From the NCBI GenBank assembly GCA_035995165.1, contig DASYKU010000066.1, positions 1,575 to 65,574 of the forward strand: a stretch of DNA of 64,000 bases. The letters run 5' to 3'. Below the pieces are notes generated by a model that worked only from the letters and a program-made list of their open reading frames with translations, had not been told where the DNA came from and did no database searches. Of the stretch, positions 19,896-26,743 are shown in pieces. The stretch is from Mycobacteriales bacterium (GTDB taxonomy: Bacteria > Actinomycetota > Actinomycetes > Mycobacteriales > CADCTP01). The stretch's first letter is position 1. Every line of letters starts with the position of its first letter. A program made the translations under genes and the position numbers.

Positions 19896-22157
19896 GTGCC
19901 GCCGGTCCCGGTCTCGACGTACCGGGTCCAGGTGTCGCCAGACTTCGACCTGCACGCGACCGCCGGCCTGGCCGGCTACCTGGCCCGCCTCGGCGTCACC
20001 CATCTGTACGCGTCGCCGCTGCTGACCGCGACCACCGGCTCGATGCACGGCTACGACGTCACCGACCACCGCACCGCCGACCCGCAGCGCGGCGGCGAGG
20101 AGGGCCGGCTCGTGCTGGCCGAGGCGCTGCGCGAGCACGGGCTGTCGCTGGTGCTGGACCTGGTGCCCAACCACATGGGCGTCGCGGTGCCGGCCGAGAA
20201 CGCGGCCTGGTGGGACGTGCTCCGGCTCGGCCCGCAGTCCGCGTACGGCCGGTGGTTCGACATCGACTGGTCGCGGGGCCGGCTGCTGCTGCCGGTGCTC
20301 GGCGACGGGCCGGACGAGCTCGCGGCGCTGCGGGTCACCGCCGGCGAGCTGCGCTACTACGACAAGCGCTTCCCGCTCGCGCCCGGCACCGAGGCCCTGG
20401 ACGACCCGGTCAAGGTGCACGACCACCAGCACTACGAGCTGGTGTCCTGGCGCCGGGCCGCGACCGAGCAGAACTACCGGCGGTTCTTCGCGATCAGCGA
20501 CCTGGCCGGGCTGCGGGTGGAGGATCCGGCGGTCTTCGACGCCACCCACGCCGAGATCCTGCGCTGGGTCGCCTTCGGCGACGTCACGGGCCTGCGGATC
20601 GACCACCCGGACGGGCTAGCCGACCCGGCCGGCTACCTGGAGCGGCTCTGGCAGACCTCGAACGGGCTCTGGACCGTGGTCGAGAAGATCCTCGAGCCCG
20701 GCGAGGAGCTGCCGGACTGGCCCGTCGCCGGGACCAGCGGGTACGACCCGATGGCCGAGGTCGACGGCGTGCTGGTGGACCCGGCCGGCACGGCCGCGTT
20801 CACCGCGCTGGACACCCGGCTGACCGGAACCGCCACGTCCTGGCCGGAGCTGGTGCACGACTGCAAGCTGGACGTGGCCACCGGGATGCTGCGGGCCGAG
20901 GTCCGCCGGCTGGCCACGCTGGTCCCCGAGGTGCCGTACGCCCAGGAGGCGCTGGCCGAGCTGCTGGCCTGCTTCCCGGTCTACCGCTCGTACCTGCCGG
21001 TGGGGATCTCACAGCTGGTTGTCGCCGTCGAGGCCGCCCAGGCCCGGCGGCCCGATCTGGACCTCGGCGTCCTCGCGGCCCGGCTCGGGGTGGCCGAGGA
21101 CCCGCTGGCGATCCGGTTCCAGCAGACCTCGGGCGCGGTGATGGCCAAGGGGGTCGAGGACACCGCGTACTACCGGTGGACCCGGTTCCTGGCCCTGAAC
21201 GAGGTCGGCGGCGACCCGGACCGGTTCGGGCTGCCGCTGCCGGCCTTCCACGCGGCGCTGGCCCACCGGCAGGACCGGCACCCGGCCGGGATGACCGCGC
21301 TGTCCACCCACGACACCAAGCGTTCGGGCGACCTGCGGGCCCGGCTCGCGGTGCTCGCGGAGCTGCCGGAGGACTGGGCCGCGGCCGTGGACCGGTGGTC
21401 GTCGCTCGCGCCCACACCGGACGGCGCGCTCGGCCACCTGCTCTGGCAGTCGCTGGTCGGGGCCTGGCCGATCGAGGGCGACCGGCTGCACGGCTACCTG
21501 GAGAAGGCGATGCGGGAGGCGCGGACCCGCACCAGCTGGGACGACCCGGCGCCGGCGTTCGAGCAGGCGATGCACGCGGCCGCGGACGCCGCGCTGCGAC
21601 CGGGCGAGCTGCACGACGACGTGGCCGCGTTCGTGGATCGGATCGCCGGGCCGGGCTGGTCGAACGCGCTGACCGCGACGCTGCTGCAGCTGACCATGCC
21701 GGGGGTGCCGGACACGTACCAGGGCTGCGAGCTCTGGGACCTGTCGCTGGTCGACCCGGACAACCGGCGGCCGGTCGACTTCGAGCTGCGGTCGGCCCTG
21801 CTGGCCCGGCTCGACGACGGCTGGCGGCCGGCCTGGGACGACGCCGCCGGCGCGGCCAAGCTGCTCGTGGTCTCCCGGGCGCTGCGGCTCAAGCGGGACC
21901 GGCCGGGGCTGTTCACCGCCTACTCCCCCGTCACCGCGACCGGCCCGGCCGCCGAGCACGCGGTCGCCTACGACCGGGGCGGCGCGATCACCGTCGGCAC
22001 CCGGCTGCCGGTCGGCCTGGCCGCCGCCGGCGGCTGGCGGGACACCACGCTGACGCTGCCCGCGGTCACCGACCTGTTGACCGGCCGGTCGTACGAGGGC
22101 GCGGTCCGGCTGGCCGACCTGCTGGCCGACCACCCGGCCGCCCTGCTCGCGCCGTGA
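19896..22157 (+). CDS. treY: Malto-oligosyltrehalose synthase
   Basis: YRVQVSPDFDLHATAGLAGYLARLGVTHLYASPLLTA...GSMHGYDVTDH and GLRIDHPDGL. Starts 1 nt after the glgX stop. Confidence 0.93.
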   Translation: MPPVPVSTYRVQVSPDFDLHATAGLAGYLARLGVTHLYASPLLTATTGSMHGYDVTDHRTADPQRGGEEGRLVLAEALREHGLSLVLDLVPNHMGVAVPAENAAWWDVLRLGPQSAYGRWFDIDWSRGRLLLPVLGDGPDELAALRVTAGELRYYDKRFPLAPGTEALDDPVKVHDHQHYELVSWRRAATEQNYRRFFAISDLAGLRVEDPAVFDATHAEILRWVAFGDVTGLRIDHPDGLADPAGYLERLWQTSNGLWTVVEKILEPGEELPDWPVAGTSGYDPMAEVDGVLVDPAGTAAFTALDTRLTGTATSWPELVHDCKLDVATGMLRAEVRRLATLVPEVPYAQEALAELLACFPVYRSYLPVGISQLVVAVEAAQARRPDLDLGVLAARLGVAEDPLAIRFQQTSGAVMAKGVEDTAYYRWTRFLALNEVGGDPDRFGLPLPAFHAALAHRQDRHPAGMTALSTHDTKRSGDLRARLAVLAELPEDWAAAVDRWSSLAPTPDGALGHLLWQSLVGAWPIEGDRLHGYLEKAMREARTRTSWDDPAPAFEQAMHAAADAALRPGELHDDVAAFVDRIAGPGWSNALTATLLQLTMPGVPDTYQGCELWDLSLVDPDNRRPVDFELRSALLARLDDGWRPAWDDAAGAAKLLVVSRALRLKRDRPGLFTAYSPVTATGPAAEHAVAYDRGGAITVGTRLPVGLAAAGGWRDTTLTLPAVTDLLTGRSYEGAVRLADLLADHPAALLAP

Positions 22158-22852
22158 CCCGGCCGGCCAGCATCCCGGACGGGCTCGTGCTGGAGCTGTC
22201 CCGGGGCACGGTGCTGCCCGGGGCGTCGGCCGAGGCCGACCGGTGGATGGCGATGCTCAACGACCGCCAGGACGAGTGCGTCGCCACCCTGGACCGGGAG
22301 CGGATGGCGGTCGAGCTGGTGTTCCGGCTGCGCGAGGACGGCCGCGACCACCTCTACTGGGTGGCGATCAAGGGCGCCGGTGGGGCCGGCCCGGACCTGG
22401 CCGACCCGATCGACCGCGACCACGACGCCCAGGCCCGGCGGACCAAGGAGCCGGGCTGGGTCGAGGCCGAGCCGCAGCTGCTGTTGCTCCCGGACCCGGT
22501 TCGGCGGGCGGTGCTGGCCTGGGCGCTGCGGGACGGCGAGCGGGTGCCGCATCCGGTCACCGCGACCGTCCGGCTGGCCAGCGCCGGCCTGCACGTCATC
22601 GACCGCTGGACCGACGCCCTGGTGGACGCGCTGCTGGACGCCGGGGCGGGCGAGCCACAGGTCGGCGGCAGCCTCACCGGCGGCCGGATCGAGGTCCGGA
22701 TGACGGTCGACGCCGCGGACGTGGCCGGCGCGACGGCGGCGGCCGGCGACGTGCTGGCCGACGCGCTGGCCGCGGCCGAGACCCACGGCGTGCGGGTGCT
22801 GGGGATCTCGACCGAGGTCACGGCAGCTGACTCGGACAGCGGTACGGCCTGA
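22154..22852 (+). CDS. Hypothetical protein, N-terminal DUF6176-like region plus an extra Ala/Asp-rich C-terminal domain
   Basis: GTG 22154 overlaps the treY TGA (GTGA). N-terminal LELSRGTVLPGASAEADRWMAMLNDRQDECVATLDRERMAVELVFRLREDGRDHLYWVAIKG matches my recollection of the DUF6176 pattern. The family call is from memory only. Confidence 0.5.
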   Translation: MTRPASIPDGLVLELSRGTVLPGASAEADRWMAMLNDRQDECVATLDRERMAVELVFRLREDGRDHLYWVAIKGAGGAGPDLADPIDRDHDAQARRTKEPGWVEAEPQLLLLPDPVRRAVLAWALRDGERVPHPVTATVRLASAGLHVIDRWTDALVDALLDAGAGEPQVGGSLTGGRIEVRMTVDAADVAGATAAAGDVLADALAAAETHGVRVLGISTEVTAADSDSGTA

Positions 22853-23071
22853 CGGTGGACCGGGTCACCCCGCCGCGTCCACCGGGCGCGGCCGTGGTGA
22901 CCGCCCCGGGCTCGGCCACGGCGAGCGCGGCCGGCACGAGCCGTGGGCGCAGGGCGGGCGTGTCACTGTTCCGGCCCCGGTCCAGATGGTTAGCTGGCCG
23001 GGAACGCCGAGGCGGAACGGCACGCTGGTGCACATGTCGACGTGCGTAACGCGAACCCGGGCCGGAGGACG

Positions 23072-23524
23072 ATGTCTGCGACGAGGTCGGCCGCGTGGTG
23101 CGCGGCCGCGGTCGCGGCGCTGGTGTGGGCGCGGCGGCGAGTGCTGATCATCCGGGTCAACGGCGTCAGCATGGAGCCGACCTATCACGACGGCGACCGC
23201 GTCCTCGCCGTCCGGCCGCACCGGCGCAGCCGGTTGCGCGCCGGGGACGTCGTCGTGTTCGACCGGACCCAGCCGCGGGTCAAGCGGATCACCGCCCTCG
23301 CCGGCGCGGTCATCGACCGTGTGGAGATCCCCGCCGGCCACGTGTACGTGCGGGGTGACCGGGGCCGCTCCTACGACTCGGCGGTGCACGGCCCGATCGC
23401 CGAGAGTCTGGTCTTCGGCCGCGCGGTCCGCCGGTTCGCCCGGCCGAACGCGAATCCGGCGATGACGACACCGATGCGGCCGGGACCGGCGCCTGTCGCC
23501 GGCCCCGGCCACATCGGTGGCTGA
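23072..23524 (+). CDS. Short S26-family (signal peptidase I / SodX-like) serine protease
   Basis: About 150 aa (ATG 23072, or GTG 23042). Box B GVSMEPTY (Ser nucleophile), box D VKRITALAG (Lys base), box E GDRGRSYDS. One N-terminal hydrophobic segment. Confidence 0.8.
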   Translation: MSATRSAAWCAAAVAALVWARRRVLIIRVNGVSMEPTYHDGDRVLAVRPHRRSRLRAGDVVVFDRTQPRVKRITALAGAVIDRVEIPAGHVYVRGDRGRSYDSAVHGPIAESLVFGRAVRRFARPNANPAMTTPMRPGPAPVAGPGHIGG

Positions 23525-23527
23525 GCG

Positions 23528-23725
23528 TCAGCCGCACTCGGGGCGGGCGTTCAGGCAGCTACCCACCATTTGGTTGCCGCAGGTGTCCTCCGAGACCGCC
23601 TTGTGCTGGAAGGGCGCCGCGCAGCACCGGTAGAAGAGGAACCGGAACCTCCCACAGTTCGCGGAGGCGTCCGTCGTCGGCACGACCGCGGAGACGAGGC
23701 GGTCAGCCAGCTTGGTGATCGACAT
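23528..23725 (-). CDS. 65-aa six-cysteine peptide with a non-Sec N-terminal leader (candidate precursor peptide)
   Basis: MSITKLADRLVSAVVPTTDASANCGRFRFLFYRCCAAPFQHKAVSEDTCGNQMVGSCLNARPECG. Very strong SD (GGAGGGAGGTG, 7 nt before the ATG). High GC3. Lies 36 nt downstream of the ABC exporter on the same strand. Confidence 0.7.
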   Translation of the reverse strand: MSITKLADRLVSAVVPTTDASANCGRFRFLFYRCCAAPFQHKAVSEDTCGNQMVGSCLNARPECG

Positions 23726-23761
23726 GATGATTCACCTCCCTCCTTCGGATAGATGAGCGGG

Positions 23762-25618
23762 CTACCCGGCCTGAGCCGGCACCGCGGCGGCGCCCTCGAG
23801 GGCGTCGTCGTCGGGGTCGGCGTAGCCGGCGGCTTGAAGGGAGAACAGCTCGGCGTAGCGGCCGCCCGGACTGTTCATCAGCTCCCGGTGCGAGCCGGAC
23901 TCGGCGACGCGGCCACCGGCCAGCACGTAGATGCGCTGGGCGTGCCGCACGGTGGAGAGCCGGTGCGAGATGAGCACGCGGGCGCCGCCGATCATCGTGT
24001 CGGCGACCGCTCGGTGCAGGTCGTGCTCGGCCTTGGCGTCGAGCCCGGAACTCGGCTCGTCGAGGAGGAGCAGGTCGCAGTCCGCGCGCATCAACATGCG
24101 CGCCAGCGCGACGCGCTGCCACTGCCCGCCGGACAGGACGAGCGGGGTGTCGGCGTCGTCGACCTCTTCGGGGTCACGGAAGAAGAGCCGGCTGAGCATG
24201 GTGTCGAGGCCGCGGGGCAGGGCGGCCAGCTCGCGCTCGATGTGCGCGCGACGGATCGCGTCGAGGATCCGCGGGCGATCGTCGAGATGGTCCAGCCGCC
24301 CGACACCGACGTTCTGCGCCGCGGTGAGGTCGTAGGTGGCGAAGTCCTGGAAGACGGCGCCGATCCGGTCCCGCAGCGACACCGGGTCGAGCGCCGGCAG
24401 GTCGACGCCGTCCCAGGTGATGCGGCCGCGGGTCGGTTCGTAGAGCCGGCACAGCAGCTTGACCAGCGTGGACTTCCCTGCCCCGTTCAGCCCGACGAGC
24501 GCGACCGATCCGCCGGCCGGAATCGTGAGGCTGATGCCCTGCAGGATCCACGGCAGGTCCGGGCGATAGCGGAACCAGACGTCCTCCAGTCGGACCGCCT
24601 GTCGCAGCGGCGCGGCCGGTCGGGCCGGCGTCTCGACGACGGCAGCAGGCGCGCAGATCCCGTCGACGGCGCCGACGAGCTGCTGGCCGGACCGCAGCTG
24701 ACCCAGCGCCTGCACGGCACCGGTCAGCGCCGCGGTCAGCCCGCCGAAGGCGGTCACCACCGCGACCACCTGACCGGCGCTGGTCCCGCCGGCCGCGGCC
24801 CCGCGCGCGACGACGCCGACCGCGGCGACGACCATCGCGCCGACCACCCCGGCGGCGATCAGCTGCATCCGCAGCGTCGTGCGCTCCAGATCGCGCTCGT
24901 GCCGGTTCGCGAGGTCGAGATCGGCCAGCATCCGGTGCCGGAAGAAGTCGCCCAGCCCGAACAGTCGCAGCTCCTTGCCGGCCACCGGGTTGCAGATCAG
25001 GCTGCGGTACGCCTCGCGCCGCCGCCGGATGGGGGCGAGCCGGCCCAGCATGGAGACGTTCAGCCGGGCCAGCCGGAACTCGATCGCCATCACCGGGATC
25101 GCCCCGGCCAGCGCCAGGACCGCCAGCGGCCACGCCACGCCGAGCAGCACCACCGTGAGCGAACCGGCGGTCACCGCCGCGGTCGCGAGGCCGAGCGCGC
25201 CGCGCAGCAGCAGCTGTGGCGCCATGGCGGCAGCGTCCCCGGCCAGCGTGAGCCGATCCTGGTATCCGGGATCCTCCAGGCGGTCGACGCCGGTCTCCTG
25301 ACCGACCCGCTCATACAGCCGCCCGACGATCTGCGCGCCGGCGATCCGTCCGATCTGGCCCTGGAGGTACCGGTCCACCTCCGGTGCGCCCGCCCCGAGC
25401 AGGGTGGCCGCGACGATCGCCGCGGCATAGCCGCCGACGGCCAGGCCCGATCCGGACCCGACGATCGCGTCCACCAACCGCTGCAGGGCGACGGCCGAGA
25501 CCGCGGTGACGAGGCCGCCCACCAGGGCCAGCGCCGTCAGGGCGAGCAGCCGGCCGGGCGAGGCCCGGAGGATCAGCCGCGAGGCCGGGCTCGTGCGCGG
25601 CCGGTCACGCACGCGCAC
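23762..25618 (-). CDS. Fused TMD-NBD ABC exporter (no C39 peptidase domain)
   Basis: A six-helix ABC_membrane region is followed by Walker A GLNGAGKST, signature LSGGQWQRVALARM, Walker B LLLLDEPSSGLD and H-loop ISHRL. GTG candidates at 25618 and 25612 sit next to the upstream gene's TGA (25607..25605). The track start at 25711 is less likely. Confidence 0.88.
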   Translation of the reverse strand: MRVRDRPRTSPASRLILRASPGRLLALTALALVGGLVTAVSAVALQRLVDAIVGSGSGLAVGGYAAAIVAATLLGAGAPEVDRYLQGQIGRIAGAQIVGRLYERVGQETGVDRLEDPGYQDRLTLAGDAAAMAPQLLLRGALGLATAAVTAGSLTVVLLGVAWPLAVLALAGAIPVMAIEFRLARLNVSMLGRLAPIRRRREAYRSLICNPVAGKELRLFGLGDFFRHRMLADLDLANRHERDLERTTLRMQLIAAGVVGAMVVAAVGVVARGAAAGGTSAGQVVAVVTAFGGLTAALTGAVQALGQLRSGQQLVGAVDGICAPAAVVETPARPAAPLRQAVRLEDVWFRYRPDLPWILQGISLTIPAGGSVALVGLNGAGKSTLVKLLCRLYEPTRGRITWDGVDLPALDPVSLRDRIGAVFQDFATYDLTAAQNVGVGRLDHLDDRPRILDAIRRAHIERELAALPRGLDTMLSRLFFRDPEEVDDADTPLVLSGGQWQRVALARMLMRADCDLLLLDEPSSGLDAKAEHDLHRAVADTMIGGARVLISHRLSTVRHAQRIYVLAGGRVAESGSHRELMNSPGGRYAELFSLQAAGYADPDDDALEGAAAVPAQAG

Positions 25619-26153
25619 CCCACGGGACGCGGTCGACGGTGAAGGCGCTGCCCGCGAGCGCATCGTGGTCGAAGACCAGATAGCTCGGGAACGACGTGAT
25701 ACCGAACTCACCGGACAGCGGCCCGAGCGGGCGGTCCCGGACCACCGTGGCGATGCCGGCGAACGGCTCCTCGAGCGTCGGGTCGCCGTGCTCGGTCAGC
25801 ACGACGATCACCACCGCGGCCCCGTCGGCCGCCGCCCGCGCGGCGAGGTCACGAACCTTCGGCAGCTCCAGGTGGCAGCTGCCGCAGCCCTGGGAGAGGA
25901 ACGCCAGGAACACGCGGTGGTCGGCCAGCGTACGGAGCCGGAACGGGGCGCCGTCGGTGCCGGGGAGCTCGACGTCCGGCAACGGGCTGCCGGCCGGCAG
26001 GACCAGTGGTTCGGCGGCGGCCAGCCCGAACGGGTCTGCGGGTCGGTGCGGCGCGACCGAGGTCCGCAGCCGGCGCACGACACCGAGCAACAGCAGCAGG
26101 TTGATCAGGGTGACCACGGTCAGCACGGCGACGGCTGCGGCGAGCACGCTCAT
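25605..26153 (-). CDS. Membrane-anchored TlpA/redoxin-like thiol:disulfide oxidoreductase (CGSC active site)
   Basis: ATG 26153 gives an N-terminal TM anchor, MSVLAAAVAVLTVVTLINLLLLLGVV. A thioredoxin fold follows, with FLAFLSQGCGSCHLELP and a cis-Pro region (ITSFPSYLVF). An ATGA overlap joins it to the upstream gene. Confidence 0.82.
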   Translation of the reverse strand: MSVLAAAVAVLTVVTLINLLLLLGVVRRLRTSVAPHRPADPFGLAAAEPLVLPAGSPLPDVELPGTDGAPFRLRTLADHRVFLAFLSQGCGSCHLELPKVRDLAARAAADGAAVVIVVLTEHGDPTLEEPFAGIATVVRDRPLGPLSGEFGITSFPSYLVFDHDALAGSAFTVDRVPWGARA

Positions 26154-26674
26154 CGGGCCCGCTCCGCGGTGCCGGGCGTCCGGACCAGCGCGGTCAGGTC
26201 GTCGAGATGCACCACGAGCGCGACGAGCACGAACGCGACCGTCGCCGCGACGAGCAGCGGGCCGATGCGCACTGCCGGTCCGGACGTCGCCGCCGCCAGC
26301 AGGGCCACACCGGCCAGACCGCCATTGCGCACCGCGTGGGGCCGGCCCAAGGGTGCCCCCGACACACCGAAACACCGGCAGGCGGCGGGCGCCGGGCCGC
26401 GCGCGGCCCGCAGCGCGACGCCGGCCAGACCGAGGAGGGCCAGCGTGGCGAGCACCAGGCCGGCCACCCGCGTCGCCGGCCAGAGGCAGAGCACGACCAG
26501 AGCGGTCTCACCGGCGATCACCGCGTTGGCCACGGGCCGGGCGACCACCGGCCGGACGAGCCGCAGCGCCACCAGCGACCCGGCGAACTCGTCGCGATGC
26601 CGCGCCTTCGCCACCGCGGCGACGGCGAACGTTCCGGCCGTCACCAGCAGCGCGACCAGGTTCACACTCCCCAC
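26150..26674 (-). CDS. MauE/DoxX-family redox-associated membrane protein
   Basis: 174 aa, four TM helices. It carries the CxCFG motif (AACRCFGVSG) that I associate with MauE-type proteins. SD GGAGG lies upstream of the GTG at 26674. Confidence 0.72.
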   Translation of the reverse strand: MGSVNLVALLVTAGTFAVAAVAKARHRDEFAGSLVALRLVRPVVARPVANAVIAGETALVVLCLWPATRVAGLVLATLALLGLAGVALRAARGPAPAACRCFGVSGAPLGRPHAVRNGGLAGVALLAAATSGPAVRIGPLLVAATVAFVLVALVVHLDDLTALVRTPGTAERAR

Positions 26675-26714: not shown

Positions 26715-26743
26715 GCGCTAAGCCGGCGCTAAGTCCGCGCTAA
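26715..26743 (-). promoter_or_regulatory. Three TTAGCGC heptamers (plus strand GCGCTAA) at exact 11-bp phasing upstream of the mauE-like operon
   Basis: Plus-strand GCGCTAA at 26715, 26726 and 26737. These lie 41-69 nt upstream of the GTG at 26674 and downstream of the permease stop (26772). Confidence 0.45.

Follow-up and report, generated by a model that had tools for sequence, protein, structure and literature searches.

A short S26 peptidase as the probable leader peptidase of a cysteine-rich peptide cassette in Mycobacteriales

Dedicated peptidases of the S26 family are known for nickel superoxide dismutase (NiSOD; SodX), conjugative pilin (TraF) and TasA (SipW), and in the sublancin operon, sunA-sunT-bdbA-sunS-bdbB, a private thioredoxin-like protein and a membrane oxidoreductase serve a disulfide-containing peptide. 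Genome mining with decRiPPter has flagged "MauE" families of candidate ribosomally made peptides with post-translational modifications (RiPPs) in Streptomyces (Kloosterman et al. 2020, PMC7794033); this paper discusses MauE/MauD and the Cys count, and its candidates are computational only. Here, we analyze a 64,000-nucleotide stretch of contig DASYKU010000066.1 from the Mycobacteriales assembly GCA_035995165.1 (hereafter, the window), in which a gene for a short S26 (signal-peptidase-I-like) protein (23072..23524, plus strand; 150 amino acids [aa]) lies tail to tail with the gene for a six-Cys peptide. In our assessment, this protein probably works as a Ser/Lys peptidase, belongs to a subfamily of its own within S26 and removes the 22-aa leader of the neighboring peptide after Ala22. 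The first-pass annotation had proposed such a dedicated leader peptidase from adjacency alone; the proposal is now additionally supported by the gene neighborhood, coupling to the exporter gene in relatives, a conserved [Ala/Val]-x-Ala junction and the recurrent convergent geometry of the two genes.

The locus has the makings of a self-contained cassette of five parts: precursor, MauE-like protein, MauD-like redoxin, ATP-binding cassette (ABC) exporter and S26 peptidase. On the minus strand, the operon runs from a MauE-like membrane protein with a conserved CxC loop (26150..26674; Pfam MauE, 71.9 bits), through a membrane-anchored MauD-like redoxin with a CGSC motif (25605..26153; Pfam Redoxin/AhpC-TSA) and an ABC half-transporter (23762..25618, with the start near 25612/25618; its homologs, at E values of 1e-77 to 1e-136, adjoin S26 genes in other cassettes), to the peptide gene in the last position (23528..23725), with which the S26 gene is convergent. 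The peptide open reading frame (ORF) encodes 65 aa, a 22-aa leader and a 43-aa core with six Cys, matches the leader hidden Markov model (HMM) and has orthologs in a genome of the same genus (G001) and in three metagenome contigs (L152-L154). The precursor, the exporter, the MauE-like protein and the cassette redoxin are each represented once in the genome, all within the window. Under the proposed mechanism, the S26 enzyme would cut the leader at ..TTD-A-S-A/N-C-G.. (the slash denotes the cut), after Ala22, the MauE/redoxin pair would form the three disulfides of the peptide, and the ABC exporter would release the product. No C39 peptidase domain of the kind found in bacteriocin exporters was detected in the window exporter with Pfam and NCBIfam profiles, so that leader removal may be supplied by the separate S26 enzyme. 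From these data we infer that the cleavage is due to S26 rather than to the housekeeping signal peptidase LepB, and likewise which bond is cleaved and in what order the steps occur.

The S26 protein carries all three boxes of the family, in agreement with the initial description: GVSMEPT with the catalytic Ser33 (codon 23168..23170), VKRI with the general-base Lys71 (23282..23284) and box E, GDRGRSYDS, spanning Gly95-Ser103 (23354..23380), all on the plus strand, as are the other features of this gene given below. Ser33 and Lys71, together with G95, D96, D102 and S103 of box E, belong to the 15 residues that are invariant in a 23-member alignment of the subfamily (G31, S33, M34, G41, G58, V62, K71, R72, G78, P87, G95, D96, D102, S103 and G107), and the window protein keeps all 15. 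The AlphaFold2 model built from this alignment (mean predicted local distance difference test [pLDDT] score, 85.5) comprises an N-terminal helix, a beta core and a poorly defined tail. The helix, hydrophobic and covering residues 2-23, ends with W-A-R-R-R (23075..23140), and the tail (residues 123-150; 23438..23521; pLDDT 62-67) is Pro-rich, lineage-specific and missing from most members of the family. The best Foldseek matches of the model are Staphylococcus aureus SpsB (4wvg), Streptococcus pyogenes SipA (4n31) and Escherichia coli LepB (1t7d), each at a probability of 1.00; LexA is also among the best matches, which identifies the signal-peptidase/LexA-like beta fold. Although the frame is open up to an alternative GTG start at 23042, ten codons upstream, the originally assigned ATG at 23072 is the right start because it is preceded, at a distance of 2 nt, by the Shine-Dalgarno sequence GGAGGA (23064..23069), conserved in the alignment of the window with G001, L152 and L153, and because the start context is kept in three related contigs. 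The protein is, as the initial description had it, shorter than housekeeping LepB, as judged against the three longer LepB-type copies of the same genome, and its stop codon (TGA, 23522-23524) indeed lies 3 nt from that of the peptide (23528-23530, minus strand).

Profile searches place the protein within S26 and outside the SodX, TraF and SipW types. It scores 57.9 bits against Pfam Peptidase_S26 (PF10502; cut-off 22.9) and 57.5 bits against TIGR02227, the model of housekeeping signal peptidase I (cut-off 47), with only residues 26-91 aligned in the latter case. Identity with SodX was rejected (TIGR02754, 30.8 bits against a cut-off of 63.25; the sodN/SodX pair of the genome is located elsewhere), as was identity with TraF, judged by profile scores alone because the trees included no TraF sequences (TIGR02771, 16 bits against 100.25; NF010412, 16.6 against 186), and with the SipW or endoplasmic-reticulum-type S26B enzymes (TIGR02228, archaeal/SipW type, 29.7 bits against 51.85), the window protein having a Lys general base. 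A Lys in this role is typical of S26A. A SodX mini-HMM gave 34 bits, no better than for other S26 proteins. With an HMM built from 64 cassette enzymes, from which the window gene and its orthologs had been left out, the window protein scored 103 bits, a paralog on contig C27 of the same genome 141, LepB proteins 55-80 and SodX proteins 41-64.

We built a quick phylogenetic tree of 130 rows and a careful one, for which thinning at 70% identity left 70 rows. In both, short enzymes form a clade that stands apart from the LepB-type sequences, among them the three of the same genome. In the careful tree, this clade of 36 rows, set against 34 LepB-type rows (support for the split, 82 ultrafast bootstrap and 90 in the Shimodaira-Hasegawa-like approximate likelihood ratio test), consists of 31 cassette enzymes, the window protein, the C27 paralog, one orphan and two SodX sequences, the latter forming a well-supported, long-branched subclade. 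The placement against LepB and SodX that had been suggested as a check thus puts the window enzyme with the cassette S26 proteins and SodX and away from LepB. By profile scores and tree position, we assign the enzyme to a distinct, cassette-associated subfamily of short S26 peptidases, apart from LepB and other than SodX; of the initially suggested likeness to SodX/TraF-type enzymes, the common clade with SodX stands, whereas the scores fall below the cut-offs of both families. Altogether, the genome encodes six S26-like proteins: three long LepB proteins, a SodX on contig C96, the window protein and the C27 paralog. As first noted, the window contains no NiSOD gene; the sodN gene resides on C96, where it reads MRLSRLLTPRTVAYA/HCDLPCGVYDP with the hook HCDLPCGVY, and the short S26 gene divergent from it can be taken as a real SodX because its neighbor is a genuine sodN. 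The NiSOD propeptides of three genomes (the C96 gene at C96:108535-109035 and those at L053 and L064) end in A-x-A before His-Cys (..TVAYA/HC, ..VEATA/HC). The likeness to the cassette leaders concerns the type of junction only, and we claim no homology because the leader profile scores about 0 bits on these propeptides.

A dedicated function is supported by the gene neighborhoods of the relatives. With the window S26 as the sole query, a search of 401 genomes of the order yielded matches in 43 genomes and 16 of the 97 genera. We fetched 40 of these loci with 9-kb flanks and scored their ORFs with the window proteins: 34 are cassettes with the ABC exporter, the redoxin and usually MauE, two lie beside sodN and four are orphans. 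Thus, the orthologs are not, as would have spoken against the proposal, usually neighbors of sodN or conjugation genes. A second set of loci was collected from species-representative genomes with the pattern G[VF]SMEPTY, derived from a seven-sequence alignment and sampling only part of the family. In this set, the exporter gene is directly upstream of S26 in 40 of 40 actinomycete loci, from Amycolatopsis, Lentzea, Kibdelosporangium, Actinophytocola, Actinosynnema, Hamadaea, Actinoplanes, Micromonospora, Streptosporangium, Cryptosporangium and Fodinicola, and none of the 38 LepB-like loci from other phyla retrieved by the same search has a cassette beside it. A phylum-wide profile search returned mostly LepB-like matches (81-94 bits) and two further genomes above 100 bits; in the phylum-wide sample, a full cassette outside the order, in the order peptide-MauE-redoxin-exporter-S26, is present in a genome of 9.2 Mb (G454). 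In 49 cassette loci, the start codon of S26 overlaps the stop codon of the ABC exporter by 4 nt, which indicates translational coupling of the peptidase to the exporter in these relatives. The convergent arrangement of S26 and peptide genes, including the 3-nt gap, recurs in G001 and in the three metagenome contigs, and because the outer flanks in all four differ from those of the window, the five genes appear to move as one block. Many of the loci come from related genera and are not independent events, so that the 26 clusters of peptide cores described below and the spread over several families provide a fairer measure of recurrence.

Some of the sampled loci are incomplete. Around four orphan genes of the cassette type, three from one genus of the order (L049, L059 and L066) and L072, the 9 kb of flanking DNA contain neither an exporter nor a redoxin, MauE or leader peptide gene, and three of the four are close relatives of cassette-embedded copies in sister species. 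L060 (genome G071) has an exporter divided between two ORFs and a precursor that breaks off after the leader. In L152, the exporter appears as two ORF calls of 109 and 496 aa, redoxin and MauE are joined in a fusion, and one Cys of the peptide is replaced relative to L153. Both L060 and L152 look like decaying or misassembled cassettes.

The leader profile detected a small Cys-rich ORF with a leader in about 70 of 74 cassette loci. The expectation that orthologs always neighbor such an ORF therefore holds for nearly all cassettes and not for the four orphans among the 40 fetched loci. Among the four cassettes without a precursor, two (L080 and L113) are on contigs that begin inside the cassette, one (L055) is on a contig of only 3.7 kb and one (L044) is unexplained. 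The 64 distinct precursors fall into 26 core clusters, with cores of 21-55 aa joined to one common leader, which in 48 of the 64 is 24 aa long and follows the consensus M-R/x-K-T-L-x-x-L-(S/G/A)-D-(R/K)-(L/M)-L-x-x-F-V-(P/A)-K-x-x-[A/V]-x-A, with charged residues at the place of the hydrophobic core of Sec signal peptides. The numbers of Cys per core are 4 (one precursor), 6 (15), 7 (one), 8 (41) and 10 (6), that is, even in 63 of 64, consistent with the formation of disulfides by MauE and the redoxin. The precursor family is visible only through the leader profile: by its own sequence, the window peptide has relatives in only two clusters among 5.8 billion proteins, and neither this peptide nor eight other precursors gave a meaningful match to curated NCBIfam models.

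At the junction between leader and core, Ala occupies P1 in all 64 precursors and P3 is either Ala (38) or Val (26), whereas P2 accommodates eight residue types and P1' nine, never Pro; the first Cys follows the predicted cut site by 0-6 residues. Small residues at -3 and -1 are the classic rule for type I signal peptidases. In the window peptide, the aligned -3 to -1 columns correspond to Ala20-Ser21-Ala22 (23660..23668, minus strand), predicting a cut at ..TTD-ASA/NCGRF.., before Asn23, that would leave the 43-aa core. The ASA/N junction, singled out in the first-pass annotation as the only substrate-like sequence nearby, thus aligns with a column conserved throughout the family.

Several observations weigh against the dedicated role of the window enzyme, and most of these would fit an unlikely alternative, namely that it is a relaxed or decaying accessory copy and that the leader is removed either by the C27 paralog or by housekeeping LepB, which likewise prefers to cut after A-x-A. 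The C27 gene (C27:98773-99312, equivalent to L004 7774-8313; minus strand) encodes a cassette-type S26 that is 49% identical to the window protein and more canonical: it outscores the window copy on family HMMs (141 against 103 bits on the leave-out model and 135.9 against 128.8 bits) and could do the job instead. The window protein lacks the PGDPVP segment found in most members and has shortened loops, and together with its G001 ortholog it forms a long branch in the short-enzyme clade, whose separation from LepB has moderate support and within which even the careful tree does not settle how the window lineage branches relative to SodX and to the main group of cassette enzymes. In the window, in G001 and in L152-L154, S26 is convergent with the operon, so that it is neither coupled to nor, in the window, co-transcribed with the exporter. 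Finally, in pairwise comparison with three orthologs, S26 evolves faster (ratio of nonsynonymous to synonymous substitution rates [dN/dS] 0.45-0.63) than the exporter and redoxin (0.21-0.36). Nevertheless, dN/dS of S26 is below 1 in every pair, and the peptide, compared with the same orthologs, is looser still (0.64-0.90). None of the 15 invariant residues has been lost, the strong Shine-Dalgarno sequence and start context are conserved, and the position and 3-nt spacing are the same in four related contigs with different outer flanks. The C27 gene itself resembles a leftover: it lies some 3 kb from the end of its contig, divergent from a gene that encodes a TPR protein of 550 aa, and the 11 kb examined around it hold neither a precursor gene nor genes for an exporter, MauE or redoxin. 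It possibly derives from a lost second cassette. Because the sole precursor, exporter, MauE and redoxin of the genome are in the window and the C27 copy stands alone beside the TPR gene, we take the window copy as the working partner.

The remaining alternatives concern the function of the enzyme rather than its condition. A further general type I signal peptidase for Sec substrates, linked to the cassette incidentally or as a booster of secretion, would have precedents in the multiple Sip paralogs of Streptomyces and Bacillus and would fit both the TIGR02227 score above the cut-off and the fold matches to SpsB and LepB. We nonetheless consider this very unlikely given that the TIGR02227 alignment is restricted to part of the protein, the trees keep it apart from LepB, its charge bias around the membrane helix is the reverse of that in the three LepB proteins of the same genome, and it is found, closely and repeatedly, together with a single type of exporter and a single family of leaders. 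Nor do we give much credence to a role without proteolysis, in which the protein would be an escort, an assembly factor or an immunity protein and for which SipA, an inactive S26 homolog that acts in pilus assembly in S. pyogenes and is among the best structural matches, would be the model: Ser, Lys and box E are invariant in 23 diverse members, which is not expected of a non-catalytic homolog. That the protein matures a cytoplasmic metalloprotein, as a protease of the SodX type or another, and that its gene is a chance neighbor of the peptide operon seems hardly credible. SodX does belong to the same short-S26 clade, is similar in size and acts on substrates ending in A-x-A, but the window protein scores poorly against both SodX models, the sodN gene of the genome has its own adjacent SodX, the SodX sequences examined lack the N-terminal hydrophobic segment that corresponds to the predicted helix of the window protein, and only two of 40 relatives are found beside sodN.

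The charges around the membrane anchor allow a prediction of the side of the membrane on which the S26 enzyme acts. We examined 45 distinct enzymes in which the start is fixed by the overlap with the exporter gene. In 34 of these, the protein opens directly with the hydrophobic helix; the mean number of Lys plus Arg is 0.2 ahead of the helix, against 2.6 in the eight residues that follow, and the later count is the higher one in 43 of 45. The window S26 follows this pattern with one Arg before the helix and RRR after it, the reverse of the three LepB proteins of the same genome, which have 5-8 Arg before the anchor and one Arg/Lys after it. The cassette redoxins likewise have a long hydrophobic helix at their very start, with an Asn or Asp buried in it, and in 43 of 43 distinct members this anchor is immediately followed by three Lys/Arg (RRLR or near variants), whereas ordinary membrane or lipoprotein redoxins of the same genome have positive N-terminal flanks. 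In the MauE-like protein, the CxC motif (CRC in the window), conserved in at least 80% of 39 distinct homologs, belongs to the loop that follows the third helix; this loop is rich in Arg and is predicted to lie on the same side as the first loop, which is rich in Arg/Lys. By the positive-inside rule, these charge biases suggest that S26, the redoxin and the MauE CxC motif would all face the cytoplasm, and such an orientation of S26 would fit its kinship with the cytoplasmic SodX.

We therefore lean, if only slightly, toward a catalytic domain of S26 that faces the cytoplasm rather than the outside as in LepB; the canonical outside-facing order, with export first and trimming and oxidation afterward, falls a little short of an even prospect. 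More tentatively, one may envisage the cassette as a maturation machine on the cytoplasmic face, in which the leader would be cut and the disulfides made before export, with S26 acting in trans like a C39 domain. An S26 relative of inverted topology paired with a cytoplasmic-face disulfide system would, to our knowledge, be unprecedented. Should the cytoplasmic orientation prove true, it would change the presumed site of oxidative folding for the cassette peptides and offer a way to approach the functions of MauE and MauD, which have long been obscure. Methylamine dehydrogenase has a small subunit that leaves the cytoplasm by the twin-arginine translocation (Tat) pathway, and the same cytoplasmic-face logic, if it holds, could explain why this enzyme needs MauE and MauD.

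The surroundings of the cassette contain possible traces of its regulation. Divergent from the S26 gene is a frameshifted remnant of approximately the first 50 codons of a regulator of the Streptomyces antibiotic regulatory protein (SARP) type (22865..23033, minus strand), recognized from ORF fragments and DNA alignment with G001 and L152. The SARP-type gene next to S26 in G001 is intact, with BTAD, Trans_reg_C and NB-ARC domains; L152 shares the DNA homology, and the window and L153/L154 keep only the stump, so that the cluster seems to have lost its own activator here. Upstream of the MauE-like gene, three TTAGCGC heptamers, the only copies in the window, are spaced at exactly 11 bp (26715-26743, minus strand), and L152-L154 have two (TTAGCGG and TTAGCGC) at the same spacing and position. 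SARP regulators bind heptamer repeats at 11-bp phasing, and the repeats would thus fit the SARP gene beside S26 in G001. A scan of 22600-24000 for promoters and terminators found none; with the S26 and peptide stops 3 nt apart and no terminator-like hairpin detected there, each transcript would be expected to run antisense into the other gene, and such convergent read-through may have a regulatory effect. Directly upstream of the S26 gene, an ORF at 22154-22852 (plus strand), coupled to treY, encodes a DUF6176 protein (96.8 bits). This family is also represented near the cassette in L152 but is missing there from L153/L154, in which the gene abutting S26 encodes a member of glycoside hydrolase family 4.

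The practical consequence of these findings is a rule for genome mining: a cut at [Ala/Val]-x-Ala, 0-6 residues before the first Cys, predicts the mature product for every family member identified to date, which in the present sample means 26 core types. This makes synthesis, mass-spectrometric detection and heterologous production of the predicted products testable in cultivable Amycolatopsis, Lentzea, Streptosporangium and Streptomyces. In the literature, we found no experimental work on the MauE/S26 cassette, nothing containing core or leader strings of the precursors and no description of an S26 enzyme that serves a family of bacteriocins or RiPP-like peptides by removing their leaders; for MauE, S26 and RiPP, only the decRiPPter paper was relevant. 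Neither an S26 peptidase nor a signal peptidase is mentioned in its main text, and the cleavage motif and the exporter coupling are not addressed in the part of its text available to us (PMC7794033). What is new here is the S26-centered evidence (clade, coupling and P1/P3 statistics), the cut-site rule and the prediction of orientation.

Among the closest known systems is SodX, which like the window protein is a short S26 peptidase with a Ser/Lys dyad. SodX serves a single substrate whose gene lies close to its own, as proposed for the window protein, and, in the three genomes inspected, it removes a short non-Sec N-terminal propeptide ending in A-x-A before a Cys-containing motif, as the cassette leaders do. 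Maturation of NiSOD by SodX takes place in the cytoplasm. Unlike the SodX sequences examined, the window S26 has an N-terminal membrane helix, and its neighbors are an exporter, a redoxin, MauE and a Cys-rich peptide instead of sodN. With LepB, SpsB and SipS it shares the fold, the catalytic dyad and the -3/-1 small-residue rule, but it is about half the size of LepB, belongs to a separate clade and has a reversed charge bias, and the cassette leader differs from LepB substrates in having charged residues instead of a hydrophobic h-region and an ABC exporter of its own.

In the organization of the pathway, a close parallel is offered by bacteriocin exporters of the PCAT/AMS type (e.g., SunT), in which a C39 domain ties leader removal to a dedicated exporter, as proposed for the cassette; C39, however, is a Cys protease that cuts after Gly-Gly and is a domain of the exporter, whereas the cassette S26 is a separate polypeptide of unrelated fold with a Ser/Lys dyad and [A/V]-x-A specificity, and the oxidoreductases are MauE-like and Redoxin-type rather than BdbB/BdbA as in the sublancin operon. 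The TMcin pathway of Gram-positive bacteria, with the protease TmcP, the DsbA-like TmcD and the exporter TmcBC, embodies the same concept in a membrane-located form (PMC13712780); judging by its published description, it differs in the types of components, in a product with a transmembrane helix and in the taxa involved (PMC13712780). By its MauE homolog and its Cys-rich precursor with the shared leader, we identify the window cassette as a decRiPPter MauE-type cluster. Three precursors from that study (S2 Table: S. viridosporus T7A, sp. CS081A and sp. 2112.3) have, by eye, the cassette leader type with A-x-A before a Cys-rich core, although each has at least 8 Cys against six in the window peptide (PMC7794033). 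The cluster type itself had thus been flagged earlier (PMC7794033), and to it the present analysis adds a probable dedicated S26 maturation protease serving a family of exported peptides.

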